Part shown: positions 8,193-49,562 of the stretch, piece by piece | Layout: the number at the start of each line of letters is the position of its first letter | Position numbering within the stretch: the first letter of the stretch is position 1 | NCBI GenBank assembly: GCA_965220815.1 | Contig: OZ244846.1 | Coordinates: 4,212,538 to 4,276,537 of the forward strand | Origin: Gammaproteobacteria bacterium | Lineage (GTDB): Bacteria > Pseudomonadota > Gammaproteobacteria > Eutrophobiales > Eutrophobiaceae | DNA length: 64,000 nucleotides | Direction of reading: 5' to 3' | Notes under the pieces: generated by a model | Seen by the model: only the letters and a program-made list of their open reading frames with translations | Database searches by the model: none | Told to the model about the DNA's origin: nothing | Program-made: the position numbers and the translations under genes

Positions 8193-8200
8193 GGTATCAG

Positions 8201-8416: not shown

Positions 8417-8419
8417 CGA

Positions 8420-8640: not shown

Positions 8641-8717
8641 TAACAGACTGGATCCCGGAAGCAACAACCACCACCTGACCCTGGCAGAAAAACACACTGC
8701 AGTGCGGGAGCATAACC

Positions 8718-9731
8718 ATGCTAAATAGAATTGAGCTTAAAAATTTTGGGCCACTTTCCAAATTAAATTGGAGTGACCTTGGCTCCATCAACCTGATTGT
8801 CGGTGGCAATGGCACAGGGAAGACGTTCCTTTTGAAAGCTGTTTATAGCGCCATGCGGACTCTGGAAGAATACAAACGCGGAGATGAACGTAGAACAGAT
8901 GCTGAGATCCTCGCCGAAAAACTTTACTGGATATTCCAGCCAGACAAGATTGGCGATCTTGTGACCAAGGGGACCGACGGCGCATTGTCTTTTACTGTGC
9001 AAATTGACCGACAGAACTTTATTTACAGCTTTGGTAAGAATACAACCAAGCAAATCTCATCGCTGGAAAACCAGGTCCCGCCACGGTCAAGCAACTCTAT
9101 ATTCCTGCCTGCGAAAGAAGTGCTGTCTTTACATCAGATTATTCTTAAATCCCGCGAACAGGATAAGGCCTTTGGTTTTGACGATACCTATCTCGATCTC
9201 GCCAGAGCACTGCGCCAGTCTACCCAGAAGGGCAAGAATGATGATCAGTTTGCCCAGTCGCGACAGAGCTTGGAAGATATTTTCGGGGGACGGGTCGAAT
9301 ATGATGAGACGTCCGGTCGTTGGCAATTCAAAAAAGGAAATCTGAAGTTCCCTATCGGCGTGACATCCGAAGGCATCAAGAAGCTTGCCATTCTCGATAC
9401 CTTACTTGCTAACCGGTATCTCGATACCAACTCGATTGTATTCATTGACGAACCGGAGTCGTCCCTTCACCCCGTAGCAGTTTCGCAACTTTTGGATATC
9501 GTTGCTGTGCTTGCCAAGAGCGGTATCCAGTTCTTTCTAGCCAGCCACTCTTACTTTGTCGTGAAGAAGCTGTATTTGATTGCTCAAGAGCAGAATCTTT
9601 CCATCCCGGTCATTTCGGCTCATAACAACCAATGGACTCCCGCAGACCTTAGGGAAGGAATGCCGGAAAATTCGATCATTGATGAGTCAATCAAACTTTA
9701 CAAGGAAGAGGTGGGGTTAGTACTTAAATGA
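8718..9731 (+). CDS. Small ABC/AAA_15-21-type ATPase (cassette gene 1)
   Basis: 337-aa ORF with a GGGAG RBS upstream. Walker A GGNGTGKTF, signature-like TSEGIKKLAIL, Walker B IVFIDEPESSLHP, H-loop-like LASHSYF. GC is lower than in the flanks. Confidence 0.8.
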   Translation: MLNRIELKNFGPLSKLNWSDLGSINLIVGGNGTGKTFLLKAVYSAMRTLEEYKRGDERRTDAEILAEKLYWIFQPDKIGDLVTKGTDGALSFTVQIDRQNFIYSFGKNTTKQISSLENQVPPRSSNSIFLPAKEVLSLHQIILKSREQDKAFGFDDTYLDLARALRQSTQKGKNDDQFAQSRQSLEDIFGGRVEYDETSGRWQFKKGNLKFPIGVTSEGIKKLAILDTLLANRYLDTNSIVFIDEPESSLHPVAVSQLLDIVAVLAKSGIQFFLASHSYFVVKKLYLIAQEQNLSIPVISAHNNQWTPADLREGMPENSIIDESIKLYKEEVGLVLK

Positions 9732-10270
9732 GCACACAGCCGATTATCGAATCCGGAATGACATTCGGCCCGTATCCGGAAGGTCAATGTTTTTACATTG
9801 AGAAAAGCAATATCTACGCAGCTATTCAGGAACATGTCCAGATGGCAGAGTTCCTGTTGTTGCGCACAAGTAACGAAAAACCGGTGATCTGGATCGTCGA
9901 GGCCAAATCCAGTACGCCTCATCCCGAAACCCAACCTAAATTCGATGACTTCATCGTTGAGATCCGAGAAAAACTCATTAATGCCTTTTCACTTGGATGG
10001 GCATCTTGCTTGAAAAGGCACCAACATGCCAAATCAGAATTACCCGAAGATTTCAAAACACTTAACCTGTCACAAGTTGATGTGAAGTTTGTATTGGTGA
10101 TAAAAGGACATCACGACGAGTGGCTGCCGCCACTTCAGGATGAGTTAGGGATTGCGCTGCGTTCAACAGTCAGAACCTGGGCCTTTGCCCCGACCTCCGT
10201 TGCGGTAATCAACGATGTGTTAGCACGACAATATGGACTGATACTTCCCGCGAAAGGAGGTGGCAATTGA
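9728..10270 (+). CDS. Hypothetical 180-aa protein with a PD-(D/E)xK-like core (cassette gene 2, putative nuclease effector)
   Basis: The start overlaps the ATPase stop (ATGA) and the stop overlaps the pglZ TTG start (TTGA). PVIWIVEAKSS resembles an E-x-K restriction-endonuclease-fold motif. No other motif was recognised. Confidence 0.55.
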   Translation: MSTQPIIESGMTFGPYPEGQCFYIEKSNIYAAIQEHVQMAEFLLLRTSNEKPVIWIVEAKSSTPHPETQPKFDDFIVEIREKLINAFSLGWASCLKRHQHAKSELPEDFKTLNLSQVDVKFVLVIKGHHDEWLPPLQDELGIALRSTVRTWAFAPTSVAVINDVLARQYGLILPAKGGGN

Positions 10271-12612: not shown

Positions 12613-14654
12613 TTGAAATGGACCAGATCGACAAGAAGGCGGCCACCTCGCTAGACGGGTACTTGGTTCGAAAGGATTTGGTTCGAACGTTCAGCCGCCA
12701 ATTTCCGGTGCCGACGTACGTAGTCGAGTTTCTACTCGGCCGATATTGCGCCAGCACCGAGCAGGACGAGATCGATGAGGGTCTTGAGATCGTCCAAAGG
12801 CAACTCAAATCAAGAACGGTCAAAGCCGGGGAAGAAGAACTCTTCAAGGCCCGGACCAGGGAAAATGGCGAGATCAAAATCATCGACCTCATTACCGCTC
12901 GCCTGGATGCGAAGACCGACTCCTACATCGCAACACTACCCAGCTTGCGGCTAAACGATGTCCGCATCAGCCCCGAACTGGCGAATGAACATGAACGGAT
13001 GCTGACAGGCGGCTTCTATGCTGAAATCAGTCTGAACTACGATGCGTCTATCGCGCAGGAGAGTAAAGGAAGACCCTTCGGTGTTGCGTCGCTCCGGGAA
13101 ATCCAGCTATCCAAACGGGATGTGCTAGATATCCTGGCAGAGACCCGCAAGTCCTTCACTACCTGTGAGTGGATTGAGTTTCTGCTTCGCTCCGTCGGCA
13201 TTGAGCCAAATGGATTATCTTTGCGGCAACGCGATGTCTTGATGCTGCGAATGGTTCCTTTTGTCGAGAGAAATTACAACCTGGTGGAACTCGGGCCGAG
13301 GGGAACTGGCAAAAGCCATCTCTTCCAGCAGGTTTCTCCGTATGCTCACTTGATTTCCGGTGGTAAAGCAACAGTTGCCAAATTGTTCGTCAACAACGCA
13401 ACAGGCCAGCGCGGATTGGTCTGCCAATACGATGTGGTCTGCTTCGATGAGGTGTCCGGCATCTCCTTCGATCAGAAAGATGGTGTGAACATCCTGAAGG
13501 GATACATGGAGGCCGGCGAATTCAGCCGTGGCAAGGAAAGCATCCGTGCCGATGGCAGCATCGTCCTGGTTGGGAACTTCGATGTGGATGTTGAACACCA
13601 GCAGCGCATCGGGCACCTGTTTGGCCCCATGCCCCCCGAGATGAAAGACGACACCGCATTCATGGATCGAATCCACGCATATGTGCCCGGCTGGGATGTG
13701 CCCAAAATCAGCAAGGAGCTTTTGACGAATCACTTCGGTCTTGTGAGCGATTTCTTGTCCGAGTGCTGGAGTCAGCTCCGCAATCAAAGCCGTGTCGGTG
13801 TACTGCAAGGCCGGGTGTTTTTCGGTGGCGCTCTGTCGGGCCGAGATACAAATGCGGTCAACAAAACCGTAAGTGGATTGCTCAAGCTTCTCCATCCCGG
13901 CGAGGGCGAGGTGGCCGACGAGGACATCGAGTGGGCCGTCCATATCGCCATGGAGGCAAGACGTCGCGTCAAAGAACAGCAGAAACGCATTGGCGCGGCG
14001 GAATTCCGTAATACTCACTTCAGCTACGCAATGGGTGACGACGGCGTGGAAAAGTTTGTCTCGACGCCGGAACTGCAAAGCGAAAACAGCATTGGGAGCG
14101 ATCCCCTTGAGCCGGGTCAGGTCTGGACCATCTCGCCGGGTGGCGGTGAAGAACACCCAGGGCTCTACCGCATTGAGATCAATGAAGGCCCGGGTACCGG
14201 TGTCAAGATACTCAACAAGCCCGTGCCCCCCGCCTTCAGGGAAAGTATGGGCTACGCCGAGCAAAACCTTTACGCGCGGTCAATGCAATTGGTCGGCGAC
14301 AAGGACCCTCGACACCACGAATTCACTGCGCAACTCCGAGCCTTCGACGCGTCCAAGTCCGGTACGAAACTCGGCATGGCGTCACTCATTGCGCTATGTA
14401 CTGCTTTATTGAAGAAAAGCGTGCGCGGAGGTCTCATCATCGTTGGAGAAATTAATCTGGGTGGCTCTATTGAACCTGTTCACAACCCCGTTACGATTGC
14501 CGAGATTGCGGTTGAAAAAGGTGCGTCTGTGCTATTGATACCGGTTGTTTGCCGTCGGCAACTTTATGATTTGTCCGATGACATGGCTACCAAAATTGAC
14601 ATTCAATTTTATTCCGATGGTAGGGATGCCCTGTTGAAGGCAATGGTGGAGTAA
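12609..14654 (+). CDS. brxL: BREX Lon-protease-like protein BrxL
   Basis: 681-aa ORF overlapping the pglZ stop. N-terminal LVRKDLVRTFSRQFPVPTYVVEFLLGRYCAS. AAA motifs ELGPRGTGKSHLF and VVCFDEVSG. C-terminal Lon-protease-like domain (LGMASLIALCTALL...GEINLGGSIEPV). Confidence 0.9.
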   Translation: MIEMDQIDKKAATSLDGYLVRKDLVRTFSRQFPVPTYVVEFLLGRYCASTEQDEIDEGLEIVQRQLKSRTVKAGEEELFKARTRENGEIKIIDLITARLDAKTDSYIATLPSLRLNDVRISPELANEHERMLTGGFYAEISLNYDASIAQESKGRPFGVASLREIQLSKRDVLDILAETRKSFTTCEWIEFLLRSVGIEPNGLSLRQRDVLMLRMVPFVERNYNLVELGPRGTGKSHLFQQVSPYAHLISGGKATVAKLFVNNATGQRGLVCQYDVVCFDEVSGISFDQKDGVNILKGYMEAGEFSRGKESIRADGSIVLVGNFDVDVEHQQRIGHLFGPMPPEMKDDTAFMDRIHAYVPGWDVPKISKELLTNHFGLVSDFLSECWSQLRNQSRVGVLQGRVFFGGALSGRDTNAVNKTVSGLLKLLHPGEGEVADEDIEWAVHIAMEARRRVKEQQKRIGAAEFRNTHFSYAMGDDGVEKFVSTPELQSENSIGSDPLEPGQVWTISPGGGEEHPGLYRIEINEGPGTGVKILNKPVPPAFRESMGYAEQNLYARSMQLVGDKDPRHHEFTAQLRAFDASKSGTKLGMASLIALCTALLKKSVRGGLIIVGEINLGGSIEPVHNPVTIAEIAVEKGASVLLIPVVCRRQLYDLSDDMATKIDIQFYSDGRDALLKAMVE

Positions 14655-36722: not shown

Positions 36723-36741
36723 CCCATCTGATTTATTCGTG

Positions 36742-36772
36742 GATGACACAGATGAACGCAGATATTTTTTTT
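36742..36772. repeat. Solo arm of repeat family 3 (GATGAC.CAGAT.AACGCAGAT + T-run)
   Basis: ggatgacacagatgaacgcagatattttttt, compared with cagatgacgcagattaacgcagatgttttttt at 52134-52165. Lies 36 nt from the DUF499 stop. Confidence 0.6.
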
Positions 36773-36807
36773 AGAGCGCAGAGGACATAACCAACAGGAC
36801 AGATGGA

Positions 36808-39800
36808 TTAATCCTTCTCAAAACCATGAGTTTTGAACTTTAGGGTGTTGCTGTTTTCCGTGACAGTGCGAACCACGTTATCCGGCGCGCCATCTGGAAT
36901 GTTGGCCTCAATTTCCAGCGTGACTTTAACCTCGGCGCCAACCAGTCCGGACAGGTGTGAAATCACTTCCTCGGCGACCTGGCCGGCATCGCGTCCTACG
37001 CGGGTTGCATCCAGTTCCTTGGAACCGTGAAATCGGATCGGAAGCTGAACCTCCACAGTTTCTCCTGAACCGCTGGGTCCAGGTGGTTTGCCAATTATGG
37101 GTGGCCCTCCCGCCTCTCTATCCTTTTCTTTTTCCTCATCGTCTGGTGAGCCGGGACGCTGTGTACGCTCATCATCAAGCTGCTGCTGCGCCACCTCCGG
37201 TTTCACCAGCAGTCCGATGCGCAGTTGGCCTGTTTCCTGGATTTGGCCGGTCTGCAAACCCTGATAACGCTTCGCATCTTTATCATACCCTTCTGCATAC
37301 GCAAAACCATCTTGTGCCCAGGTCAGGCTGCCCAGGCCGCTGTTTACCGCCTGCATGAGCACATCCGGGTTGCGTAGACGGGGCAGGTACAGGTAGCTGG
37401 TGAAGTCCTCGATAAGCTGATTCACTCGGACGTGATTGCCGCGCCACAGAGGTATCTTGTCCAGTTCCATACGCAGGTTGGTGCCGGCAAACCCGTCGAG
37501 CAACAGTTCGTCATTCTTGAGCCTGTTCCCGGCGCGCACAGCCAACGCACCCTTGGCAGACAGTCGTAGCGCCTCCCAGCGGATTTCCGTTTGTTGCGCC
37601 TGCTCCTGGCCGGGGACCAGCAACCATTGCCAGGTTTCCGGTACTCGGACTGCAACGGCTTCCGATGCCGATTCCAATTGGGTCTGCGCCTGTTTCACCT
37701 GGTGTGGGTCCAGGTTGAGTTCTTCCCGCTCCGCGACGATGGAATCCCAGGCCAGGTAGAGGCATACGGCCTGTTCCAGTTCCTGCACCCTGGCCTCGTC
37801 CGCCGCAAGGAACACCAGGGTATTGCGGTAAAGTCGTGGCGCGCTGCCCCTGGATTCGAGAATGGTCCGGGCCGCCGCTTCCGCTTTACTGTCACCGCCT
37901 TTGCTGTAAGGCTGCGCCGTACCCAGTACGACCAGTCGGGCATCCCAATCATCAGGCACGTCCTGCGCGCCCTGAGGTAGGAGATGAATCCGGCTGAAGT
38001 CACCGGTTTCTCTCAGGTCAGCCCGGAGTCTGTCGGCCAACTCTGCCCTAACCTTGTCGTGGTCGCGCCTGAATTGCTCGGCGCGTTCTTCCGCCAGCTT
38101 TCTTACCGTCGGTTGAGTTGCGTACCAATAGCGAGTGCCCTCCCGGTACAGGTAGGTCGCATCGTTCGCCAGCCGCAACAGGGCGTCACCGAACACGGCC
38201 GAGGTCTCTCCCGGCATCACGCAACCCAGTTTCACCTGTCTGTCATCTACTCCCCTGTGCGTGGTTCCGGCGCCGGGGGCCGAGCCCAGGTAGATGGTGC
38301 GGGCGACTCGGCGACAGGCCGACAACTTGCCCAGGTTCGGCGCCTTGCGGTCAATTTGCAGTGGCAAGGAATGGGGGCCGTCCACGTCTTTTTCAATAAT
38401 GGGCGCCCAGTTGTCTGACAGGTATCGAGTCAACTCGCGCTGTATGCCGGTGTCATCAAGGGCAACGTTGCACGGTAGTATCAGGGCACTTTTATCGCCT
38501 GTTTCCCACAGGTTGTGGATTACCGCCGCCATCAGGCGTAACACGCCGCGAGTGCGCTGGAAGTGTACCAGGGTGGACCAATCCTCATACAAACGATCAA
38601 AAATCTCAGGATGAATCGGGTAGGCTGAGCGGATGCGTTGCTCGTAGTCCGCTTCCCCGCACTGGGACGGAAACTCCTGGCTCTGACGCCGATAGAATTC
38701 GTTGAACTCTCTGGCGACCACGTCGCGCTGCTTGTAGGCTTCGTTGCCGCTCAAGGGCTCAAACAGGCGGCGCCTGACGATCTCGAAACCTTCTTCGGCG
38801 CTGGCCGGGCGCCATGCCGATTCAACTCGCCCAACCACGTTTTTCAGACGCTGCAATGCTTCCACGCCGCGCTGACCGCCGACCTCAACGGTCTCATGGT
38901 GCGACGCCGTATCCGAGGCCGGCAGGCTGATCACCAGCAAACAGTTCTGCGCCGCCTTGGCCGCTTCGGTCAGGGCCTGGGCAAAACTGAACTGGGTATC
39001 GAAACTGCCGCCCGGCAGGTCGCTGTGCTCGTGCAACTGGCGGGCGTAGGCTACCCACTCATCGATAAGGACCACGCAGGGGCCGTATTGATTGAACAGT
39101 TTCCGCAGGGTATCGCCGGGATTGGTGGCGTTTTCATCGTCCGCGGCCAGGATTTGCCAGGCCGCTTTCCCACCCAACTGCCAGGCCAACTCACCCCAGA
39201 GAGTGCGCACCACCACGCCATCTTCCTTCTGTACGGGATTCCCGGGGGAAATCTTGTTGCCGACCAACACCACGCGCCTTGCCTGCGGTAACCCACCAGC
39301 GCCGGCCTCGCGCATGACCTCCTCCATGCCGGCAAGTTCGGTCGGTTCGGCGCCGGAGAACAGGTGATACAAGGCCAGCATGGTATGGGTCTTGCCGCCA
39401 CCAAAGTTGGTCTGCAACTGCACTACCGGGTCGCCACCCTTGCCGTTAAGACGCCGGACGGCATCCGTCAGCAGCCGTTTGAGGCTGTCAGTAAGATAAG
39501 TGCGGCGAAAAAACTCCCTGGGGTCGAGGTACTCGGCGGAACCCTCGCCCAGGTGCACCTGCCAAAGATCGGCGGCGAACTCCGCCTGCTGGTAACGGCC
39601 GCTGGCCACGTCCTCGTGAGGGGTTATCACCTCGCGCCAGGGTTTCATGTTCCCCGCGGCGCCAGTGTCCAACGCCAGCCCCGTTTGCTTTCTGCGCTCA
39701 CCCCGGGTCTGTTCGTCGAAGCGGGTGCGCAGCAACTCCATCCTGAGTCGTTCCACCGCGCCCGACTCCGGCGCGGATACGGCTGTTAACAAACGCTCGG

Positions 39801-40146
39801 TCGAGTCCAGGGCGCGATAAGCGTCGTCGCTGGAAAAACTCTCCTGGTGCGCCCACTTGTTGCGCACCCCGCGCAACTCGCCCACCAATCCCCGTTCTGC
39901 TGGTCCCAGTATGCGGCGAAAGACATCGTTCCAGGTTTCCCACATGATCTGAAGTAATTTTGCGCTGTCCCATGCACTGATCGACTTGTCCGCAAGCAGC
40001 GGATCATCAGCATAAGCCTTCAGCTTGTGGGCATCCAACTGCCGCGATTTTATCGCGTCCTTGATCTCGCGATCCACAAACGGTCCCAGCCCCGCCTTCA
40101 GCAAGTCCAGCGCCTTGCCAACCCGCTCACGGTTGGTAATTGCCAT
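36808..40146 (-). CDS. Swt1-like HEPN domain fused to a DUF499-type P-loop ATPase
   Basis: 1112 aa. N-terminal HEPN R-x4-H motif (GVRNKWAHQESF), Walker A NFGGGKTHTMLAL and Walker B CVVLIDEWVAY. A long C-terminal region follows. Confidence 0.8.
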   Translation of the reverse strand: MAITNRERVGKALDLLKAGLGPFVDREIKDAIKSRQLDAHKLKAYADDPLLADKSISAWDSAKLLQIMWETWNDVFRRILGPAERGLVGELRGVRNKWAHQESFSSDDAYRALDSTERLLTAVSAPESGAVERLRMELLRTRFDEQTRGERRKQTGLALDTGAAGNMKPWREVITPHEDVASGRYQQAEFAADLWQVHLGEGSAEYLDPREFFRRTYLTDSLKRLLTDAVRRLNGKGGDPVVQLQTNFGGGKTHTMLALYHLFSGAEPTELAGMEEVMREAGAGGLPQARRVVLVGNKISPGNPVQKEDGVVVRTLWGELAWQLGGKAAWQILAADDENATNPGDTLRKLFNQYGPCVVLIDEWVAYARQLHEHSDLPGGSFDTQFSFAQALTEAAKAAQNCLLVISLPASDTASHHETVEVGGQRGVEALQRLKNVVGRVESAWRPASAEEGFEIVRRRLFEPLSGNEAYKQRDVVAREFNEFYRRQSQEFPSQCGEADYEQRIRSAYPIHPEIFDRLYEDWSTLVHFQRTRGVLRLMAAVIHNLWETGDKSALILPCNVALDDTGIQRELTRYLSDNWAPIIEKDVDGPHSLPLQIDRKAPNLGKLSACRRVARTIYLGSAPGAGTTHRGVDDRQVKLGCVMPGETSAVFGDALLRLANDATYLYREGTRYWYATQPTVRKLAEERAEQFRRDHDKVRAELADRLRADLRETGDFSRIHLLPQGAQDVPDDWDARLVVLGTAQPYSKGGDSKAEAAARTILESRGSAPRLYRNTLVFLAADEARVQELEQAVCLYLAWDSIVAEREELNLDPHQVKQAQTQLESASEAVAVRVPETWQWLLVPGQEQAQQTEIRWEALRLSAKGALAVRAGNRLKNDELLLDGFAGTNLRMELDKIPLWRGNHVRVNQLIEDFTSYLYLPRLRNPDVLMQAVNSGLGSLTWAQDGFAYAEGYDKDAKRYQGLQTGQIQETGQLRIGLLVKPEVAQQQLDDERTQRPGSPDDEEKEKDREAGGPPIIGKPPGPSGSGETVEVQLPIRFHGSKELDATRVGRDAGQVAEEVISHLSGLVGAEVKVTLEIEANIPDGAPDNVVRTVTENSNTLKFKTHGFEKD

Positions 40147-40375
40147 TATGTAACCCCGCCCTCAGATATAGTGCGGGTAGTATAACACCGACCGGTTACA
40201 CACCTTTTCCCGGGGGTGTATCCGTTCAGCGATAGCAACGGGCGCATGCAACCAATCGGGAAGCAGATGACGGATTGATGATATTCAATAAACAGCTAAG
40301 TCGCTATGAAGGGGACTATAGGCCGGTTTGAAATTTGTTCTTACGTTGCAATCAGGCTGCCACTTGCTTGCCTGT

Positions 40376-40666
40376 TCAAGCGTGTGTCTGCACTTTCAGA
40401 GACAGACCCAACCCTTGTATTATCTTTCTGAAACTGGACAGTTTCGGATTGCCTGCTTCCGAGAGCATTTTATACATGCTCTCGCGACCAAGGTGCGCAC
40501 GTTTTGCCAGTCCCGTCATGCCGTCTTCCTGGGCTTCTGCTATATTACGTAGCGCCATCAACACAATACCCGGCTCATCTTCTTGCAAGGCCAGATTAAG
40601 GTATTCTGCTGCGACTTCAGGATCGCGCAAATGTTTGCTGTGAGTTGACCTTATATTACGGGCCAT
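40376..40666 (-). CDS. Addiction-module antidote protein (HigA-family HTH antitoxin)
   Basis: 96 aa. LRDPEVAAEYLNLAL...GMTGLAKRAHLGRESMYKMLSEAGNPKLSSFRKII is typical of the antidote family paired with RelE/HigB-like killers. Confidence 0.8.
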   Translation of the reverse strand: MARNIRSTHSKHLRDPEVAAEYLNLALQEDEPGIVLMALRNIAEAQEDGMTGLAKRAHLGRESMYKMLSEAGNPKLSSFRKIIQGLGLSLKVQTHA

Positions 40667-40991
40667 TACTTGTTCTCCTCTTGTGTTCTTGCCAATACGC
40701 CTTGGCTCTCCTTATATCCCTGGATTGTGTGGATTTATTGCCTCCACATAACACCAGGAAGGTATCCTGATTTTCTCTACAGTAATATACGCGGTAACCA
40801 GGACCGTAATGGATTCGTAATTCAGACAGACCATCACCGATAGACTGCGAATCACCGAACAACCCTGACTCCATCCGGTCTACTTGCATAATGACCTTGG
40901 CCCTGGCTCTTTTGTCACGCAGAGACTCCAACCACTCGGCGTAAGGACTGCTGCCCCGCTCATTTGTATACTCATTGATGCGATAGGACAT
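40656..40991 (-). CDS. RelE/ParE-superfamily (HigB-like) addiction-module killer toxin
   Basis: 111 aa. SPYAEWLESLRDKRARAKV...SELRIHYGPGYRVYY...LVLCGGNKSTQSRDIRRAK. Overlaps the antitoxin start by 11 nt. Confidence 0.8.
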   Translation of the reverse strand: MSYRINEYTNERGSSPYAEWLESLRDKRARAKVIMQVDRMESGLFGDSQSIGDGLSELRIHYGPGYRVYYCRENQDTFLVLCGGNKSTQSRDIRRAKAYWQEHKRRTSNGP

Positions 40992-41057
40992 TTAAGACGT
41001 TGCTAGTGTATTCTACAGGATACAAATTGTAAAGAGCAATACGGGGACGCGCTTTCT

Positions 41058-44000
41058 TCAAAACATCTCGGACTGGCCGGGTAGTGTGATGGTGCGGGAC
41101 AGGCGTTCGATTTCGGGCCAGGTTTGTACCAGGGAGTTGTACCAAAGGGCTTCGGAGGGGCGTTGTTTGCGTTCGCATACGGTGTATAAGCGGTAGCACA
41201 GTTCGCGGGCGACGTCTGCCCTGGAACCGAGGCGTTTGACCAGTTCTCCGGTGGCGCTCTCGCCGCCGGTTTCCAGTACCCGGATCAGGTGGTGCGCCAC
41301 TTCCCAGGCCGGGAGGCGGTTATCAGTTTCCGGGTTCCAGTCTTCCGGGAGTTCCTGTGGTTTGAGCAGGCGCACTTTACCGCCGCTTGAGGTGAGGATG
41401 CCGGCTTCCACCAGGCCGGCCACGCTGGTGTTCTTGGCCTTGGACAAGGTCTCCGCCACGCCGTACTCGCCGTCGTTAAAGCCCTGCTGCTCGAACCAGG
41501 CCAGCGCCCAGCGGCTGTCGGCGTCGAAGTCACCTTCCTGTTCGGCCAGGGCTTCATCCAGGGTCTGGTTGATCAGCGCCAGGGCGTCTCGCACCGACAC
41601 GGGCCGGCCTTGGGCGTCCAGTACCTCGCGGTAGCGGGAATAAACAGCCATTCCCGGTCCGATGGCAGCCTGGGCCAGGTCTACCGGAGCAATGTTGCCG
41701 GATTGCAGGTGGGACAGGGCTGCGGGTAACTCGGCTTTGAGGGCAGCTACGAATTCGCGGCGGGAGGCGATGGGTGCAGCGTCAGGGCGGCGGCGACAGA
41801 CGAGGACGATGCTGGAGGCGAGGGCGTTGGTGTCTTTGCCGATCATCCTGTTGCCAAGTTCGGTCCGCATAGGCCAGGTGCCGGTTATGGAAAATCCGGC
41901 TAAGATGACCGCATCAAGGAAGGTTTCCCAGCCGGTGCTGGTAGTCCCGGCGTCACCTTTGGTTTCGGATTGCTTGAAAGCGTAGTAGATGGTAACTGGA
42001 AATCCGCTATGTGCCTGCGTTGCCAGACGCTCCATGGCTTGCGTCATGCCGTCCAGGAAAAATTGTTCTGCTTTATCCTTGCCACCATGACGGTAAGGAG
42101 CAGCAACAAGTTCCGCCGCTTTCGGTACAGCAAGCGTAGCAAACAGGTCAGGAAAACTGGAACGTAATGAACGGCGCAACCAGACGTAGAAGAAATCGGA
42201 CAAGTCTGCATAACCGATATTGTCGTAATAGGGTGGATCAGTCGATACAACTTTGTTCTTTGTCACTTTCTGAATAGAAGCATCCTGATTTTTCGACTCT
42301 CCATTTCTGGCTGCCGGTAAAGACATTTTCACAACTTTGGTTATCCAACTAACCCCCCCATTGAAGTTACCCGAAGCCTTGCTAAATGGATTACCTTCCG
42401 CATAATCCCAAGTCATTGCTATGGCTTGCCGACTGAAAGTGTTAATTACACCACTCGCAGTGGGAGTCGGATCCCATCTCCCTAGAGTTGAATGTCGATC
42501 AGACATCTTGTCAACAGCAAACCCCAAATAAACCCCCACCGCCTCCGCATAGGCGGTTGCGCCTGTGCCACCGTCCCGCAGGGGGAGATCATTGTTCTCC
42601 GGAGGTGGGGCGGTGTTGAGGATGTTGTGTTCCCCCTCACCCCGGCCCTCTCCCTCCAGGGGAGAGGGGGTATGTGGGGCGGCGGTTCCGTCCTCCAGGG
42701 GAGAGGGGGTAGTATTGCTGTTGTGGCAGTCGGTTTTGACCTTGTCGATGGCGGCGGCTATCAGGTCGGAGAAGGTGCTCAGGGCGAGTAGTTGGCGGGG
42801 GGTGAAGATTTCTCCGAAGGTATTCATGCCATAGAGGGGTAGTTGATCTCTGCATTTGCCTACAAGCTCGTTCTCAGGTTTCCACGACGGTTTTGCAGTT
42901 GCAGCAATTTCCTCCTGATCTTTTGACGGCGACAGGTATACACGCCCTCGATCACCCTCAGCAACAATTGCCATCAAGCGTGCTCCCATCCTGCCAGCCT
43001 TGCCCTCCGCTTTGATGTAGTCGCCTGAGAGCGGTGTCCCGCTCATGACACATCGAAAATTCGCGCCGCGAGCCAGTTTGGTGCCGGCTTTGGCCGCTTC
43101 CGGGTCTTTCGGTACTCCAACCTTCACGCTAAAACGGTAATCGCGGCCTTCGATGACCGGTTCCACGTAGGCTTCCTTACCCTTCTTGGTCGATAGCATG
43201 AAGGTAGAGACCAGCGGCACCTCCACCTCGGCAAAGGCCGGGTTCGGGCTTTTTACGGTGCGCGCCCACAGCCAGGCGATGACGGTGAGCTTGCGGTCCA
43301 GGTAAGGTTTCAGGTCGGGGCGTTCCCGTACCATCGTCTCGGTTATCTCTACCGGCGGATACATGTGCCCGATACGGCGTTCAGCCTCGGCGCGCATCCA
43401 CTGCCCGTAGTAGCGCACGTCTTCGGCCAGACCCTGGGCGCCGCGCCAGAAGCCGGGAGTCTCTCCCTCTCCTTGGCCCTCTCCCTCGGAGGGAGAGGGA
43501 GTACGGCCTTGCGTTGTGAGGGTTTGTTGGCGTGATTGCGGGTTGACCGGCGCCTGGCCGGCAAACTTCGGTGGAATTTCAATCATCGCCTTGTTGATGA
43601 GCACGGCCACCGGGTTGAGGTCGCTGGCGTGGGCTTCCAGCCCCAGGCGTTGCGCCTCCAGGGGCAAGGCGCCACCACCGGCAAAGGGGTCGTGGAAGCC
43701 CGGCAGTCGCTCCGGGTCGAACAGTTCAGCAGCGCGGGGATGGTCGGCATTATCGGCGCAGGCACGGCGCCAGTTATCACGTATCTCCAGACGCGCCTGT
43801 TCCAACACATCCTCGTTGGTGGTGTTCTCCCATATAACCAGTTTTTCCAACAAACCGAACAGACGTTGCCGCTCCTTGTCCTGTTCCGCCTCAGTAGGGA
43901 ACAACTCCGGACGTGATGAAGGATCATCCACCATCTGCGCAAAGATCACCGCCCGCGCCGCCGCCAACGGCCGCCGCGCCCACCACAGGTGCAAGGTACT

Positions 44001-44111
44001 GGGATGCCCGTGCCGAATGGACTTCTCCCGCGCCGACGCTTTGTTGATGGCGTCCAATGGCAGGGCAACTTCAATGAGTTTTTTTCGGAGGGTTGGATCG
44101 CGTTTATTCAC
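41058..44111 (-). CDS. DUF1156-type N6-adenine DNA methyltransferase
   Basis: 1017 aa. DUF1156 N-terminus ([36 protein letters not shown]), SAM motif [15 protein letters not shown] and catalytic [21 protein letters not shown]. Confidence 0.85.
42632..42711. repeat. In-frame GC-rich palindromic insertion(s) inside the DUF1156 methyltransferase gene
   Basis: 9-bp stem ccctctccc (42646-42654) / gggagaggg (42660-42668). 18-bp direct repeat tccaggggagagggggta at 42655-42672 and 42694-42711. These encode ...[27 protein letters not shown]... Confidence 0.8.
43458..43503. repeat. Third in-frame copy of the GC-rich palindromic element inside the methyltransferase gene
   Basis: ccctctccctc (43477-43487) / gagggagaggg (43489-43499). 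Encodes ...[17 protein letters not shown]... Confidence 0.75.
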
Positions 44112-44124
44112 GTTCGGATGAGGC

Positions 44125-44640
44125 TTATGCCAAACCTCCGAAACAAACTCTTCTGGAACTGATTATTTTATCGATGTATTTTGCTCGGCATTCATCCAAG
44201 GCGCTCTCCTCTATTATCAGGTAAACTATTTCAAACTTCCTCCGTATTTTCCCTCGTAACATCTGTAGTTCATTCTGCCCTGCAAATTCTCTGTTCAAAA
44301 TTTTATCAACAAGCGCATCATACTCATTTATCTCAGCCAACAATGACTCCACCAACCGGGATTTTTTGTCTTGCAACAGTTGTTCTTTGTCCACCTTGTG
44401 CTTGTGGAAATAGTAGAAGAAACCCAACACTACACCGCTTAAAGCAGTCAATGAACCTGATATGGAACCAACTATGATGTAGTAATTCCTCAGGCCGGTG
44501 ATATCGAATTTAGAAACGATTGCTGATGTATACAAGGACGCCGAATAGAACGGTTGGATAAAAAAGTGATAAAACAGCCAAACTACTGACAGAAAAATGA
44601 CGGCAGCCATGCCAACAGCAACAACATTCCTTATGCTCAT
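44125..44640 (-). CDS. Hypothetical 2-TM membrane protein with a cytoplasmic helical tail
   Basis: 171 aa with two hydrophobic helices ([22 protein letters not shown]; [24 protein letters not shown]) followed by a charged helical region. About 40% GC. The start overlaps the upstream stop (ATGA). Confidence 0.55.
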
Positions 44641-45065
44641 CTTGAGTAGCCTGATTCCAGTTCCTGTTCGATAATTAACTCTTGGACGCTCGATATATTC
44701 TTGAAGCGTATTTTCTTTTTCAGTCGTTCCGGCGTTGTGTATTTCATAAAATAGGCAAATGCTTCATTGGCAAATGAGGGGCCTATTTTTTTCACATTCT
44801 CAAAGTTGAAAATGATGGTAATTTTGTCATCTTTCCAAGTGTCTTTCTCATCCAAATCACACAAATACGCCTTCCTGAACTGTTCAGCCGTATGCCGACC
44901 ATCACCTTGATACTTGTTCCGGTTTGCCAACCGATGATAAAACTCTTTGCCAATGTCTACTTCTCTCATGAAACACCTCTCTCTAAACGCATATCCATAA
45001 TAGGATGGTATAGAAAATTCAATATCCTGTAAATCCGCATTAACTCGGCTTTTCCACCCTGGCAA
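44637..45065 (-). CDS. Hypothetical protein, possibly STAS-like (DUF4325-type); start uncertain
   Basis: 142-aa ORF overlapping the helicase 3' end by 26 nt. An alternative ATG at 44969 (MREVDIG...) is possible. The segment ITIIFNFENVKKIGPSFANEAFAYF resembles DUF4325, but the assignment is weak. About 40% GC. Confidence 0.4.
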   Translation of the reverse strand: MPGWKSRVNADLQDIEFSIPSYYGYAFRERCFMREVDIGKEFYHRLANRNKYQGDGRHTAEQFRKAYLCDLDEKDTWKDDKITIIFNFENVKKIGPSFANEAFAYFMKYTTPERLKKKIRFKNISSVQELIIEQELESGYSR

Positions 45066-48000
45066 GCAGTTCCTTGAAGTCGTAATTTACACTGGCAGCC
45101 ATGGTATCAGGTTCTTTGCTGAATGGCTTACGGATGTAGTGTACGTTATGCCGGCCGTCTTCAAGGAATTCGACGATGGCGAGGATGAAATCATCGGGTT
45201 TGTTGAGTGAATACAGTATCTCGTTGCGTGTTACGGTGATGGTGGGGGCGCCGGCGACTCTGCCTTTGACTTCGATGAAGCGCAGGCGGCCGCTGTCGGG
45301 GACGGCGCTTTCTATGTCGTAACCCAGTTTTTCGGTCTCCCGGTCCACGGGGATGAAGCCAAGCGAGCGTTCCGTTTCCATGATGATAGCGCGAGCGCGG
45401 GCCGCGGCGGCCTGGGTGTCTGTTGTGTGGGTAGTTGATGCTGGTGTGTGACCGCGTATTTTATCGATAAGTCCCAGGGGGACCACCAGTGCGCCGCCCA
45501 GCGCGACGGGTGGCAGTGCAGAGATCTGCGCTTCCTGCTTTAACTGTTCAAGACGGCGCGTCAGTCTTTCCTGTAACAGGTCGGCGCGTTTGCGCGCCTC
45601 GCCGGAGTTCAGACGAGCGCCGCTCTTGCCGGCCTGTTCTTTCAGCTTGAGGTCTTCCGCACGGCGGTCCCAGTATGCGATTTCCTTAGTCAGCCGCTCC
45701 TTCACCGCGGCCTCGGTTTTTTCAATGAGAGTGAGCTTGGTCTCGCGCACTTCCTGCAGGTGTTCGGGCACCACGCGCGCTATGGTGTAACGCAGGATGA
45801 CGTCCTCCAGAGCGTGGTTGATCCAGCGACACTCGGCGCGTCGCAGGATTTGTCCGCATTCGGGCTCGGCATCGGTTAGTGGCCGGTAATCGAGGTGCGG
45901 TGCATTGTGCAAGTGAACGGTGTTGCCCTGCTCATCGGTCTCCACGTACAAAATCCGCTTGGATATGATGCGGCGTTCACCGGAGCGGGTCAGGCTCGCA
46001 TCCTGTATGGCGTGTTCGAGATAGAACAGCACGCGAGGCGCGGTGCCGGCATCCTGTTCATCCACCAGGATAGCGCCGCGCCGCAGTAACGGTCGGTAGC
46101 GCTCGAGTACCAACGCGGTGACGGAGTCCAATAAGGGATGGCCGGGGCAGATAAAGGCTGCCAGGGGACAGCCCGGCGCTGACACCAGGGATTTATCAAA
46201 GGTGATACGCTCATAGCGGGACTGTACCCGGATACCGGCGTCGTTGTGCCCGTCCTTGTTCTTTAATGCCGCGGGGACGTGGGTGATTTCATAACGTCTT
46301 GGCTCGCGTTGTTTTATGGTCCCGCCCACGGTCTGAAAAGCCTCGCGCAGGAATAACTCGATGAAATACGGCTGTAACCGGCGCAATTGCGCCCGCTCCA
46401 TTTGTTCACGAATTTTGTGCACACGACTGGTATCCATCACGTCATGTACCAGTGCGTGATCATCGAGCAGGTCGCGCACCTTGTCCTGTTCCAGGGCGCC
46501 GCCGACTGTCGTGGCAAGACGCGCTCGCACCTCCGGTTGCTCTCCGTAACGGATTGCTTCCACCATGAGTTCGCTTAACGGCTTGCCGTCAAACTCCAGC
46601 TTGCCCAGCACGTCAAAGACCTGTCCGCCCAGAGCCTGGCGCGCCTGTTCCAGTTTTTCCAGCAAAGTACGGTACACGTCGCCCTCGCGGGTGCCCTCCG
46701 CGACCAGGTTCCACAGGTGGCAGACTTCGGTTTGACCGATACGGTGGACGCGGCCGAAACGCTGCTCAATGCGGTTCGGATTCCAGGGTAGATCGTAATT
46801 CACCATCAGGTGGGCGCGTTGCAGGTTGATACCCTCGCTGGCTGCATCGGTGGCAATCAGCACCTGTACCTGGGGGTCGTTACGGAAGCTTTCCTGGGCG
46901 TTGTTCCGGTCTTCCCGCTTCATCCCGCCGTGGATCAAAACCACCGCTTCAGAGCGTCCCTGGAACGTGGTAATGCGTTGTTGCAGGTACGTCAGGGTAT
47001 CCCGGTGCTCGGTGAAGATCACCAGTTTCTGGCGCGGCGATGCTTCGGGTTCAGGGATTTTTCCGGTGCGGTAGCGGGGTTCCGGCTCGCCGATGCGATT
47101 GCTGCTCCCGGCTGACGTGAAGATTTTCTCCAACAGGCCGCTTAGCTCCTTCCACTTGGCGTCAAGCCCGCTACTACGCACGCGTGTAGCCAGCGTTTCA
47201 AGTTTTTTCAGTGTGTAGATTTCCGCTTCCAGTTCGGTAATGGAACCTGCCGCGGTGGCCTGGTCCAGGATTTCTTCTTCAGCGCTTTCAATCTCATCAC
47301 CCGGCGCATCATCCATGTCCTCCAGGTCATCCTTGTCCAGGTAAGCGCCTGACGACATGGGTTCAGCAGTGCTGTGCCCCTTGCGTTGCAGTGTTTCGAG
47401 TTCCTGCAAACGTCCTTGCAGCCGCTCCCGACGCCGGCGCAAGGACTGATAGATGGCCTCCGGCGAGGAGGCAAGCCGGCGCTGCAAGATGGTCAAGGCA
47501 AAGCCCACCGTGCCGGCGCGGGTGCCGTTGCTCAGGGCTTCGGCGCGGTTAAATTCTTCACGGACGTAATCCGTTACCGCCCTGTATAAATTCTCCTCCA
47601 GGTCCGATAGCTGGTAGGCGACCGTATAGGCGATACGCTCGGGGAACAACGGCATGCCGTCAAACCTGAGCAGCTTTTCCTTGATCATGCGGCGCATCAG
47701 GTCGGATGCGTCCGTCGTATCTGAGCCGTCACGCAAGCGTCCCTCGAAGCGGTCTCCATCCAGCAAGGCCATGAACAAACGGAAGTCCTCCTCCTTGCCG
47801 TTGTGCGGCGTTGCCGTCATCAGCAGAAAATGGCGGGTGATGCCGGACAGTAACTGCCCCAGCCGGTAACGCTTGGTGTAAGAGATTTCTCCACCAAAAT
47901 ACCTGGCAGACATCTTGTGCGCTTCGTCGCACACTACCAGGTCCCAACCACAGTCCTGCGCTTGCAGCTTGTGTTGTATGTCTTCGTTGCGAGAGAGTTT

Positions 48001-48618
48001 GTCCAGGCGTGCAATGGCCAGGTCCGTTTCCTTGAACCAGTTGCCGGTGCGGGCGCTTTCCAGTTTGTCGTTGGTCAGGATTTCAAAGGGCAACTGGAAG
48101 CGGTGAAATAACTCATCCTGCCATTGTTCAGCCAGACTGCCGGGACAGACGACCAGGCAGCGTTCCAGGTCGCCCCGGGCCATCAGCTCCTTGATAAGCA
48201 AGCCCGCCATGATGGTTTTCCCCGCACCCGGATCGTCGGCCAGCAGAAAGCGCAGGGGCTGGCGCGGCAGCATGGTCTCATAGACTGCGGTAATCTGGTG
48301 CGGCAACGGGTCCACCACGGAACTGTGCACTGCCAGCAAGGGATCGAACAGGTGAGCCAGATGAATACGCAACGCTTCGGAAACCAGACGGAACCGAGCG
48401 CCATCCCCATCGAAACCCCAGGGCCTGCCGGCCGTCACGCTCTGTAGTCTGGCCTCGTCCTGGCGGTACAGTATCTCGTTGGCTACCTTGCCCGACGAGG
48501 TTTTATAGGTCAGTTCCAGCGCCTCGGAACCGAACCAGCGGACACTGACTACGCTAACGCTCTCATTGGCAAGAATACCCTCAACGGTGGCATCGGCTTT
48601 GAGGTCTTCGAGTTTCAT
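45040..48618 (-). CDS. SNF2/DEAH-family helicase with a C-terminal DUF3883 (PD-(D/E)xK-like) domain
   Basis: 1192 aa. Motif I LADDPGAGKTIMAG, II VVCDEAHKM, III LMTATPHNGK and VI NPNRIEQRFGRVHRIGQ. C-terminal KLGYDIES...LRFIEVKGR nuclease-like core. Confidence 0.85.
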   Translation of the reverse strand: MKLEDLKADATVEGILANESVSVVSVRWFGSEALELTYKTSSGKVANEILYRQDEARLQSVTAGRPWGFDGDGARFRLVSEALRIHLAHLFDPLLAVHSSVVDPLPHQITAVYETMLPRQPLRFLLADDPGAGKTIMAGLLIKELMARGDLERCLVVCPGSLAEQWQDELFHRFQLPFEILTNDKLESARTGNWFKETDLAIARLDKLSRNEDIQHKLQAQDCGWDLVVCDEAHKMSARYFGGEISYTKRYRLGQLLSGITRHFLLMTATPHNGKEEDFRLFMALLDGDRFEGRLRDGSDTTDASDLMRRMIKEKLLRFDGMPLFPERIAYTVAYQLSDLEENLYRAVTDYVREEFNRAEALSNGTRAGTVGFALTILQRRLASSPEAIYQSLRRRRERLQGRLQELETLQRKGHSTAEPMSSGAYLDKDDLEDMDDAPGDEIESAEEEILDQATAAGSITELEAEIYTLKKLETLATRVRSSGLDAKWKELSGLLEKIFTSAGSSNRIGEPEPRYRTGKIPEPEASPRQKLVIFTEHRDTLTYLQQRITTFQGRSEAVVLIHGGMKREDRNNAQESFRNDPQVQVLIATDAASEGINLQRAHLMVNYDLPWNPNRIEQRFGRVHRIGQTEVCHLWNLVAEGTREGDVYRTLLEKLEQARQALGGQVFDVLGKLEFDGKPLSELMVEAIRYGEQPEVRARLATTVGGALEQDKVRDLLDDHALVHDVMDTSRVHKIREQMERAQLRRLQPYFIELFLREAFQTVGGTIKQREPRRYEITHVPAALKNKDGHNDAGIRVQSRYERITFDKSLVSAPGCPLAAFICPGHPLLDSVTALVLERYRPLLRRGAILVDEQDAGTAPRVLFYLEHAIQDASLTRSGERRIISKRILYVETDEQGNTVHLHNAPHLDYRPLTDAEPECGQILRRAECRWINHALEDVILRYTIARVVPEHLQEVRETKLTLIEKTEAAVKERLTKEIAYWDRRAEDLKLKEQAGKSGARLNSGEARKRADLLQERLTRRLEQLKQEAQISALPPVALGGALVVPLGLIDKIRGHTPASTTHTTDTQAAAARARAIIMETERSLGFIPVDRETEKLGYDIESAVPDSGRLRFIEVKGRVAGAPTITVTRNEILYSLNKPDDFILAIVEFLEDGRHNVHYIRKPFSKEPDTMAASVNYDFKELLARVEKPS

Positions 48619-49562
48619 GCCACATTCAACGCCCCCACCAGTTCCGTTACATTGTCAAGTCCGTGTCTGTCCAGGTATTGCACGATGCCGGCGTTGATCT
48701 TTTTGCACACCAGCGGGTCGTAGAACAGGGCGGTGCCTATGCCGATGGCGCTGGCGCCGGCAAGGAAAAATTCCAGGGCATCAGTCGCCGTGGTGATTCC
48801 GCCCTGCCCTATTATCGGTATGTTCTTTTCCCTGCATACCCGGTACACCTGCCAGGTCTTCAGCAAAGCGATGGGCTTGATGGCCGGGCCGGACAGCCCG
48901 CCCTGGTTGGTCCCGATAACGGGCGTGCGCGTATCCAGGTCGACTGCCATACCGGTGATGGTGTTGATCACAGCCAGGGCGTCACTGCCGGCGGCGATGC
49001 AACGGCGCGCATTTTCAACGATATCGGTCTGGTTCGGCGACAGCTTGGTTATGAGCGGCTTGTCCGTCTCGCGCCGGCACGCCGCTACGACCTGCGCCGA
49101 CATCTCCGGGTAATTGCCGAAGCTGACGCCCCCCTCCTTGATGTTAGGACAGGAAATGTTGATCTCTATGGCGTCAATCGGTGAGTCATGGAAGATACGG
49201 GTTACCTCCGCGTATTCCTCGATCGTGGACCCGCACACGTTGGCGATAAACCGGGTTTCGGAAAAATCCAGCCCCGGCAGGTATTCATCCACCACCTCGC
49301 GTGCCCCGGGGTTTTGCAGCCCGATGGAGTTCAGCATGCCCATGTACGTTTCTGCGATACGGTGCGCGGGGTTGCCAAGACGCGGCTCCAGCGTCGTTCC
49401 TTTGAGACAGACAGCGCCGGCATCCCGGTTGGAGAAACCCTTGACCCGGGTATATTCTTCGCCGAATCCGACGCAGCCGGACAACAGCACCAGGGGCGTG
49501 TCGAAGCGCAAACCGCAGAAGTCGATAGCGAGCCTGTTACCGGTTTTAGACATATATCTCAA
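48615..49562 (-). CDS. pyrD: Dihydroorotate dehydrogenase, class 1B-like catalytic subunit
   Basis: 315-aa TIM-barrel flavoprotein pattern (GLRFDTPLVLLSGCVGFG...LNSIGLQNPG...IEINISCPNI...GGLSGPAIKPIAL...IIGQGGI). The stop overlaps the helicase start (ATGA). No pyrK-like partner is seen in the window. Confidence 0.7.
   Translation of the reverse strand: MRYMSKTGNRLAIDFCGLRFDTPLVLLSGCVGFGEEYTRVKGFSNRDAGAVCLKGTTLEPRLGNPAHRIAETYMGMLNSIGLQNPGAREVVDEYLPGLDFSETRFIANVCGSTIEEYAEVTRIFHDSPIDAIEINISCPNIKEGGVSFGNYPEMSAQVVAACRRETDKPLITKLSPNQTDIVENARRCIAAGSDALAVINTITGMAVDLDTRTPVIGTNQGGLSGPAIKPIALLKTWQVYRVCREKNIPIIGQGGITTATDALEFFLAGASAIGIGTALFYDPLVCKKINAGIVQYLDRHGLDNVTELVGALNVA

Follow-up and report, generated by a model that had tools for sequence, protein, structure and literature searches.

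A three-gene locus in a gammaproteobacterial genome is very probably an intact, HEPN-fused Hma defence system with independent genes nested inside it

Hma ('helicase, methylase, ATPase') is an anti-phage system that Payne et al. defined in 2021 on the basis of 1638 loci spread over 26 phyla (PMC8565338), and renamed the Type-1 DUF499-centred BREX-related (BR) system by Rakesh & Krishnan in 2026 (PMC12839542). Its gene neighbourhood has been traced to two earlier surveys, of HEPN in 2013 and of the EVE domain in 2020, and the Type-1 BR count stands at 2446 taxa, 1370 of them with a HEPN-fused ATPase, with helicase–restriction endonuclease fusions at 79% (PMC12839542). HmaA of Halomonas meridiana, expressed alone from its own promoter, protects Escherichia coli against T4; this defence is lost with the motif VI mutation R610A or with a quadruple PD-(D/E)xK mutant, and the isolated C-terminal domain nicks supercoiled plasmid in the presence of Mn2+ (Liu et al. 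2024, PMC11232893). Our literature search found no report of HmaC activity or of an Hma structure. The system is therefore already known: named, catalogued and partly tested. Here we analyse a stretch of 64,000 nucleotides (nt) from a Gammaproteobacteria bacterium (the window; GenBank assembly GCA_965220815.1, contig OZ244846.1, positions 4,212,538 to 4,276,537), in which three large genes at window positions 36808-48618 very probably constitute an intact Hma system of the HEPN-fused variant, with four nested genes as independent cargo. Because this triad has already been named and catalogued as an anti-phage system, the locus itself is an ordinary one, and its correct label is Hma or Type-1 BR rather than a new system.

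The three hma genes are collinear open reading frames (ORFs) on the minus strand, in the order hmaA, hmaB, hmaC:

45040-48618, minus strand: hmaA, 1192 amino acids, Snf2 helicase with a C-terminal PD-(D/E)xK nuclease of the NOV_C/DUF3883 type (PADLOC HmaA, Pfam, motifs)
41058-44111, minus strand: hmaB, 1017 amino acids, DUF1156-type amino-methyltransferase (PADLOC HmaB, Pfam DUF1156, motifs)
36808-40146, minus strand: hmaC, 1112 amino acids, N-terminal Swt1-type HEPN domain fused to a DUF499 P-loop ATPase (PADLOC HmaC, Pfam, motifs)

Each protein matches its own PADLOC-DB profile with an E-value of 0 and near end-to-end coverage (HmaA 1629, HmaB 1533 and HmaC 1172 bits), giving the one match to each of the three profiles that PADLOC asks of Hma. 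Two ORFs separate hmaA from hmaB and two separate hmaB from hmaC, all on one strand, within the clustering rule of at most three embedded genes between neighbouring hma genes (as given in bioRxiv 10.1101/2024.01.29.577857). The locus also has the features described for Type-1 BR, namely a Snf2 helicase with a C-terminal PD-(D/E)xK domain, a DUF499 ATPase with an optional HEPN domain, and a DUF1156 methyltransferase with a target-recognition domain (TRD) insert (PMC12839542). Markers of other subtypes (DUF3780, HKD on the helicase, PglZ, iSTAND) were found in none of the ORFs of 36808-48618 by PADLOC, Pfam and NCBIfam searches. The next-best helicase models for HmaA, DrmD (392 bits) and BrxHI/HII (315-318 bits), score 4-5 times lower than the HmaA model. 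A scan of species-representative genomes yielded 80 loci whose HmaA is 60-73% identical to that of the window; with profile E-values of 0 and the same gene order in these 80 loci across many phyla, the triad is far beyond chance.

A first-pass annotation, made from the letters of the window and a list of its ORFs, had described three large collinear minus-strand genes of these sizes, and they stand at exactly the coordinates it gave. A motif scan located every helicase, methyltransferase, HEPN and Walker motif it had quoted in the ORFs to which it had assigned them, and Pfam returned the domain families it had named: HEPN_Swt1 with DUF499, DUF1156, and SNF2-rel_dom/Helicase_C/NOV_C, the last being its DUF3883. 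The novelty that it implied does not survive, as the triad already bears the name Hma with PADLOC profiles (PMC8565338), the HEPN fusion is a common described variant, and defence by HmaA has been demonstrated (PMC11232893). The profiles lead to a named and partly tested system, in which the HmaA part is the one with experimental support.

HmaA residues 1-1191 align to positions 2-1172 of the 1176-position PADLOC model, and Pfam finds SNF2-rel_dom, Helicase_C and NOV_C (residues 1075-1161); a Halomonas HmaA that carries Pfam NOV_C bears the DUF3883 annotation (PMC11232893). Helicase motifs I (GAGKT at 131), II (DEAH at 231) and VI (QRFGRVHR) are present, as are GYDIES at 1099 and FIEVKG at 1114. 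The latter two include the nuclease residues D1101 and E1116-V-K1118, which, together with E1133, are found in 77-78 of 78 aligned relatives. A sequence search of the PDB with HmaA gave matches limited to RapA and other Snf2 cores. The hmaA start codon and the pyrD stop codon have 4 nt in common (ATGA, 48615-48618), pyrD being identified as a class 1B dihydroorotate dehydrogenase gene by a score of 365 bits against a cut-off of 269. In the closest syntenic relative, a Gammaproteobacteria metagenome-assembled genome (MAG) with about 79% DNA identity over the housekeeping flanks (locus L084), the overlap at the same junction is 26 nt. Such an arrangement hints that a defence gene is transcribed by read-through from a core metabolic gene or coupled to it in translation.

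HmaB residues 9-1010 align to positions 8-958 of the 967-position PADLOC model; Pfam places DUF1156 at residues 16-85 (5e-32) and gives a weak D12 methyltransferase match. Motif I (FAGGG at 143) and motif IV (DPPY at 625) are both present, and 39 relatives show no change at F143, G145, G147 or D625-P-P-Y628. DPPY is the mark of amino-methyltransferases acting on N6-adenine or N4-cytosine, and the predicted activity of HmaB is on N6-adenine. The '5mC' wording of the 2021 Hma paper (PMC8565338) does not fit this motif. Between motifs I and IV, residues of about 401-600 are variable and rich in insertions and deletions, with identity to the window protein down to 0.18-0.44, as would be expected of a target-recognition region (TRD-like). 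BR methyltransferases have been described with a zinc finger, which is not confirmed here, as neither the window HmaB nor most of its close relatives have a CxxC zinc-finger motif. A sequence search of the PDB with HmaB returned no relatives.

Two copies of a small palindromic element are inserted in hmaB:

42646-42668, no strand assigned: palindromic element copy 1, CCCTCTCCC-N3-GAGGGAGAGGG, in frame inside hmaB
43477-43499, no strand assigned: palindromic element copy 2, CCCTCTCCC-N3-GAGGGAGAGGG, in frame inside hmaB

These are the only two copies in the window, with 0 expected by chance. The element encodes '...SP(S/L)EGEG(Q/R)GEGE...' and is located where HmaB homologues show gaps; around the second copy, positions 43443-43539 of hmaB cannot be aligned with the closest relative, L082. 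A 35-nt version has exact matches in Binatia, Nitrospira, Chloroflexota, Marinobacter and Thiobacillus genomes. It looks like an element of the repetitive extragenic palindrome or miniature inverted-repeat transposable element (REP/MITE) kind that tolerates insertion into coding sequence. The names of some of the Nitrospira MAGs with the 35-nt element suggest sponge samples.

HmaC aligns over residues 166-1110 to positions 2-940 of the 941-position PADLOC model, and Pfam finds HEPN_Swt1 (1.4e-35) and DUF499 (3e-32). The HEPN domain spans residues 11-124 (coordinates 39775-40116) and carries RNKWAH at 95, that is R95-x4-H100, while Walker A (GGGKTH) lies at 249 and Walker B (LIDEW) at 360. R95, W98, H100, G249-H254, D362 and E363 are invariant in 29 relatives. 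Near the C terminus, residues of about 1001-1040 form a sharp hypervariable patch with an identity of 0.15, which fits the published 'hypervariable C-terminal domain'. The ATPase of Type-1 BR is described with a hypervariable C-terminal RRM-like domain (PMC12839542), of which the hypervariability alone is observed in the window HmaC. A sequence search of the PDB with HmaC returned no relatives.

The 80 related loci occur in Chloroflexota, Nitrospirota, Planctomycetota, Verrucomicrobiota, Spirochaetia, Actinomycetes, many Proteobacteria and archaea, a breadth that indicates extensive horizontal transfer. The order hmaA-hmaB-hmaC is conserved wherever the contig permits, with identities of 60-73% for HmaA, 42-71% for HmaB and 47-70% for HmaC, and HmaC of the relatives aligns from residue 1, so that the HEPN domain is covered. 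Alignments of 78 HmaA, 39 HmaB and 29 HmaC sequences show no variation, or almost none, in helicase motifs I and II, in the D/E/K/E residues of the nuclease, in FxGxG and DPPY, in Walker A and B, and in R-x4-H of the HEPN domain. As all of these catalytic residues are present in the window, its copy looks intact. We then compared pairwise distances by Mantel tests over the 27 loci with complete hmaABC (L002 to L079 and the window). The correlation is r=0.64 between HmaA and HmaC and only 0.1-0.25 between HmaB and either partner, and some loci combine an HmaA identity of about 70% with an HmaB identity of merely 42-43%. This poor correlation points to an exchange of methyltransferase alleles among systems. 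The hypervariable patch of HmaC and the variable region of HmaB showed no co-variation in a partial Mantel test of low power (r=-0.07, p=0.72, n=27), leaving a shared DNA specificity of the two regions unsupported.

The junctions between the hma genes hold four nested genes. Between hmaB and hmaC lies a toxin-antitoxin (TA) pair:

40656-40991, minus strand: toxin of the HI1419/Gp49 family (RelE/ParE superfamily, HigB-like; NCBIfam TIGR02683, Pfam Gp49, PHROG 3445 'toxin')
40376-40666, minus strand: antitoxin of the HI1420 family (HigA-like helix-turn-helix; NCBIfam TIGR02684, Pfam dnstrm_HI1420, PHROG 4268 'transcriptional repressor')

Both genes pass their equivalog cut-offs (toxin TIGR02683, 119 bits against 62.85; antitoxin TIGR02684, 69.5 against 53.7); they are adjacent, toxin first, with an 11-nt overlap. 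By its sequence, then, the nested pair at 40376-40991 is a self-contained HI1419/HI1420 (HigBA-like) TA module. The toxin-first order and gene overlap are common to HigBA-like HI1419/HI1420 pairs, from which this one differs by its location inside a defence operon. A promoter-like site (TTTACA-17-TACACT, 41033-41005) lies ahead of the toxin gene, in the region 40992-41057. A TGTAT...ATACA palindrome is also found upstream of the toxin, where an inverted repeat, TGTATCCTGTAGAATACA, overlaps the promoter-like site and could be the autoregulatory operator of the pair. Scans for sigma-70 promoters and terminators found sites no more frequently than in shuffled sequence, and for this reason we make no claim on operon structure beyond gene spacing.

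Between hmaA and hmaB lies a decayed DUF4325 cassette:

44970-45039, minus strand: gene 1 remnant, about 70 nt of a gene for a STAS plus GHKL kinase-like protein of about 390 amino acids (tblastn, DNA comparison; guanine-cytosine (GC) content 0.36)
44637-44969, minus strand: DUF4325 (STAS-like) gene, 110 amino acids (Pfam DUF4325 1.6e-9; GC 0.40)
44125-44640, minus strand: membrane-protein gene, 171 amino acids, two N-terminal membrane helices (homologue alignment)

The four nested genes are absent from all 80 related Hma loci. Their GC content is 0.40 in the DUF4325 cassette and 0.48 in the TA pair, against 0.59-0.60 in the hma genes and flanks. Gaps longer than 300 nt are frequent among the relatives, at 49 of 63 hmaA-hmaB junctions and 24 of 42 hmaB-hmaC junctions, in agreement with the published embedding rates of 62.7% of Hma loci (bioRxiv 10.1101/2024.01.29.577857) and 66.5%. 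Because they are missing from the 80 loci, lie lower in GC and sit at junctions where insertions are common, we read the nested genes as cargo and not as parts of Hma. The nested proteins have no PADLOC match, and DUF4325, Gp49 and HI1420 were not found in the supplements of the Hma-embedding preprint (bioRxiv 10.1101/2024.01.29.577857).

What survives of gene 1 in the DUF4325 cassette are the codons for about residues 349-362 and the last few codons. A tblastn search with the gene 1 proteins of L082, L086 and L087 matched at 45023-44985 only, and, judged by the DNA of L081, L082 and L084, the window lacks about 1.15 kb. Gene 1 of L084 has an internal deletion of its own, differing from that in the window. 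The DUF4325 gene probably starts at the ATG at 44969 rather than at the TTG at 45065 listed for the ORF; more than 120 homologues of about 110 amino acids span the whole protein. The 171-amino-acid gene has suffered an in-frame deletion of 114 nt (38 codons) that removed nearly invariant residues, 9 of 9 homologues being 197-226 amino acids long, and the junction sequence shows the deletion flanked by GA(T/G)GAGA direct repeats. Its product has no match in Pfam, PADLOC or NCBIfam. The cassette in the window is thus degraded and probably non-functional.

Elsewhere the cassette occurs whole. In six independent contexts, a gene for about 390 amino acids overlaps the DUF4325 gene by a few nt and the membrane-protein gene follows:

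L082, 130-2272: intact three-gene module
L086, 8835-11230: intact three-gene module
L087, 3209-5600: intact three-gene module
L088, 6838-8902: intact three-gene module
L089, 6833-8920: intact three-gene module
L090, 6822-8974: intact three-gene module

The module encodes a protein of about 390 residues with STAS-like and SpoIIAB-like GHKL domains, a DUF4325 protein of 110 residues and a protein of about 200 residues with two membrane helices. Intact modules recur in defence islands: inside Hma, on a Leptospira plasmid where Thoeris, Septu-like and TIR genes are neighbours, near a Bil-like ubiquitin-type system and in integrase-flanked islands. Genes 1 and 3 have no sequence match in PADLOC, Pfam or the PDB, and PADLOC-DB v2 lacks a model for the module. 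An AlphaFold model of the 390-residue protein (mean predicted local distance difference test score, pLDDT, 90.6) has a long N-terminal helix. In a fold search, its middle domain resembles STAS proteins (SpoIIAA, RsbV, the SulP STAS domain) and its C-terminal domain GHKL ATPases (SpoIIAB, the Hsp90 N-domain, GyrB). E-x3-N, D-x-G-x-G and G-x-G-L are invariant in the family; JGI names its homologues 'anti-sigma regulatory factor (Ser/Thr protein kinase)', and one has a precomputed HATPase_c match. In hhalign, the family profile aligned weakly to the N-box and G1-box of the NtrY kinase domain encoded in the window (E=0.036), and a search of the profile against PDB sequences found nothing. The model with its fold search, the homologue names and the invariant motifs together point to a GHKL plus STAS protein. 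We tentatively propose, at rather less than even confidence, that the module is a new anti-phage system in which phosphorylation-dependent partner switching controls a membrane effector. If so, the novelty would belong to the module family and not to the window locus, whose copy is decayed.

The Hma locus is flanked by pyrD on one side and by a TPR-tehB-trkH-trkA-ntrX-ntrY block on the other. Both flanks recur in three metagenomic relatives (L084, L085 and L081; window positions 36723-49562 compared) with differing content between them. L084 has hmaA and DUF4325 followed by DUF433, a gene for 534 amino acids without assignment and Fic, and it lacks hmaB and hmaC. L085 has a truncated hmaA, DUF4325, DUF433 and NYN. 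The three-gene cassette is intact in L081 and L082; the hmaA region of L081 has 79% DNA identity and no called gene and may be a pseudogene. As shared flanks enclose different content, the interval between pyrD and TPR/tehB is a variable hot-spot in this lineage, which is apparently that of an uncultured gammaproteobacterium. A second defence locus lies nearer the start of the window:

1960-14654, plus strand: BREX type 1 locus (PglX 1960-5367, PglZ 10267-12612, BrxL 12609-14654)
5364-8192: Ppl-like ABC ATPase, embedded in BREX as cargo
8718-10270: HEC-02A/HEC-02B pair, embedded in BREX as cargo
151-1863: Schlafen/AlbA_2 plus HATPase_c_4 gene, upstream of PglX, likewise counted as BREX cargo

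BrxA, BrxB and BrxC would be positioned upstream of the window. A distance of 22.15 kb, occupied by ordinary genes of metabolism and transport, separates the end of the BREX locus from hmaC. The first-pass annotation was right to place a BREX locus at about 22 kb, and profile searches also bear out its exclusion of type I restriction-modification (R-M), DISARM and BREX for the triad: HsdS, HsdR, DUF1998, PLD, PglZ and BrxL are all absent from the interval. In one genome, BREX-1 and Hma, both containing a methylase, serve as landing pads for other defence cassettes, and cargo can decay in place while its host system stays intact.

For how the three Hma proteins would act together, the published model (PMC12839542) has the best support. 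The variable TRD-like insert of HmaB would direct methylation to a particular motif in host DNA. HmaC would serve as an ATP-dependent sensor and assembly factor, acting through its fast-evolving C-terminal patch. HmaA would translocate on invading DNA and then nick or degrade it, and the HEPN RNase of HmaC would provide a second, backup abortive effector. This full R-M-like model, with marking by HmaB, sensing by HmaC, attack by HmaA and HEPN as backup, is in our judgement close to an even call, falling if anything slightly short of it; experimental support is confined to the HmaA part. The interpretation in the first-pass annotation is supported: its functional reading, in which methylation marks self and helicase, nuclease and HEPN-ATPase restrict or abort, coincides with the model published for the family (PMC12839542). 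One experiment, on HmaA and HmaB, tells against simple R-M logic. A number of observations weigh against the model and against our account of the locus. HmaA without HmaB is non-toxic in E. coli, and T4 raised on cells that express HmaB remained restricted (PMC11232893). That HmaA is harmless on its own and that the phage is still restricted are not predicted by simple R-M logic. For 15-20% of the hmaA genes surveyed, hmaB or hmaC is missing (PMC11232893), and our syntenic relative L084 keeps hmaA only, having lost hmaB and hmaC. We found no literature report of methylation by any HmaB. The absence of co-variation between the HmaC patch and the HmaB variable region implies that HmaC and HmaB probably do not read one and the same DNA motif, hmaB here carries two in-frame palindromic insertions, and the locus is known to us from sequence alone.

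Much of this would be expected if HmaA were a stand-alone effector of the Nhi/Hna type that senses a phage-specific DNA structure or protein and nicks DNA with a dormancy or abortive-like outcome, HmaB and HmaC being accessory regulators or range-extenders and no methylation-based distinction of self from non-self being made. The near-independent evolution of HmaB (Mantel r 0.1-0.25, against 0.64 for HmaA-HmaC) also speaks for such a model, as do the roughly 100-fold protection that HmaA alone gave against T4 and the collapse of this defence at a multiplicity of infection of 10 (PMC11232893). We regard it as unlikely, though a serious contender, given that HmaA works, and does no harm, in the absence of HmaB, and that some genomes retain hmaA by itself. 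Against it stand the fixed-order co-occurrence of hmaB and hmaC with hmaA across phyla and the invariant catalytic motifs of HmaB and HmaC, signs that methyltransferase, ATPase and HEPN functions are under selection. The variable TRD-like insert of HmaB is moreover the pattern of sequence-specific self-marking methylases, and T4 DNA is hypermodified, so the published HmaB test is not decisive. A different view would take all seven genes as one integrated system with the nested pairs as accessory parts, for example as backup effectors upon inhibition of Hma. The genes are indeed co-oriented and tightly packed, and nucleases embedded in BREX and BR loci have been argued to be backup effectors (PMC12839542). 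Integration is nevertheless improbable: four of the genes occur in 0 of 80 related loci and lie 11-20 GC points off the hma genes, the TA pair comes with a promoter-like site and an operator-like palindrome of its own, and in the DUF4325 cassette the kinase-like gene and a piece of the membrane-protein gene are gone, with the intact module occurring away from Hma. That the triad serves a role outside defence, in epigenetic regulation, DNA repair or chromosome maintenance, would accord with the match in GC between the hma genes and the flanking chromosome and with the 4-nt hmaA/pyrD overlap, both of which suggest long residence at the site. We consider this highly improbable given a patchy distribution like that of horizontally transferred genes (60-73% identity between phyla and domains), known defence systems embedded in Hma (bioRxiv 10.1101/2024.01.29.577857), the anti-T4 activity of HmaA (PMC11232893) and the variability of the site in close relatives. 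Least credible of all is that the triad is a divergent member of BREX type 3, DISARM or the DUF499/DUF1156/PLD-helicase system (Type-2 BR). HmaA does match DrmD (392 bits) and BrxHI/HII (318 bits), and DUF499 and DUF1156 are common to Type-2 and Type-3 BR, but those helicase scores are 4-5 times lower, PglZ, BrxA/B/F, DrmA/B/C, DUF1998, PLD/HKD and DUF3780 are all lacking, and the NCBIfam scores fall below their cut-offs. Membership is refuted and the evolutionary relationship remains.

Searches for each of these neighbouring systems gave the following. PglZ and BrxA/BrxB(F) of BREX types 1 and 3 are absent from 36808-48618, PglZ and BrxL being confined to 10267-14654. The DISARM models DrmD (392 bits) and DrmA (214 bits) score on the shared SF2/Snf2 core of HmaA only, with no separate DrmA, DUF1998 or PLD protein. 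HsdS and HsdR of type I R-M have no match in the interval in PADLOC, Pfam or NCBIfam. The NCBIfam models NF042962-NF042964 (DUF499, DUF1156 and PLD) reach 156, 111 and 168 bits against cut-offs of 1200, 1000 and 1100; these models seem to be built for Type-2 BR, the version with the PLD-helicase. For work on the mechanism, the window offers an intact HEPN-variant copy of Hma, one of thousands of equivalent loci.

Set beside BREX type 3 (BrxHII, PglXI, BrxC), the locus has a homologous helicase, an N6-methyltransferase core with a TRD insert and a STAND/ORC-like ATPase (PMC12839542). It differs in lacking PglZ, BrxA and BrxF, in having a helicase-fused nuclease as effector and in an ATPase that carries HEPN. 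With DISARM class 1 (DrmD, DrmMI) it shares the pairing of a Snf2-type helicase with an adenine methyltransferase, without DrmA, DrmB (DUF1998) or DrmC (PLD). The DUF499 and DUF1156 families are common to it and Type-2 BR (DUF499/DUF1156/PLD-helicase/DUF3780; NCBIfam NF042962-NF042964), whereas its helicase carries a C-terminal PD-(D/E)xK domain instead of an N-terminal HKD and it has no DUF3780 gene. HmaA of Halomonas meridiana SCSIO 43005, compared by its domains and motifs, is alike in its Snf2 core, Helicase_C, NOV_C and motifs I and VI, and the nuclease residues would correspond as D1101, E1116, K1118 and E1133 in the window to D1084, E1104, K1106 and E1121 in Halomonas. The cargo of the Halomonas locus is different: Septu separates hmaA from hmaB, and an AAA_21 pair separates hmaB from hmaC. 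Compared with Hma/Type-1 BR as described, the full-length matches, gene order, HEPN-DUF499 protein, helicase-nuclease, DUF1156 with DPPY and cargo between the hma genes are all alike and no difference is seen at the level of the system; particular to this copy are the TA pair, the decayed DUF4325 cassette and the two palindromes in hmaB.

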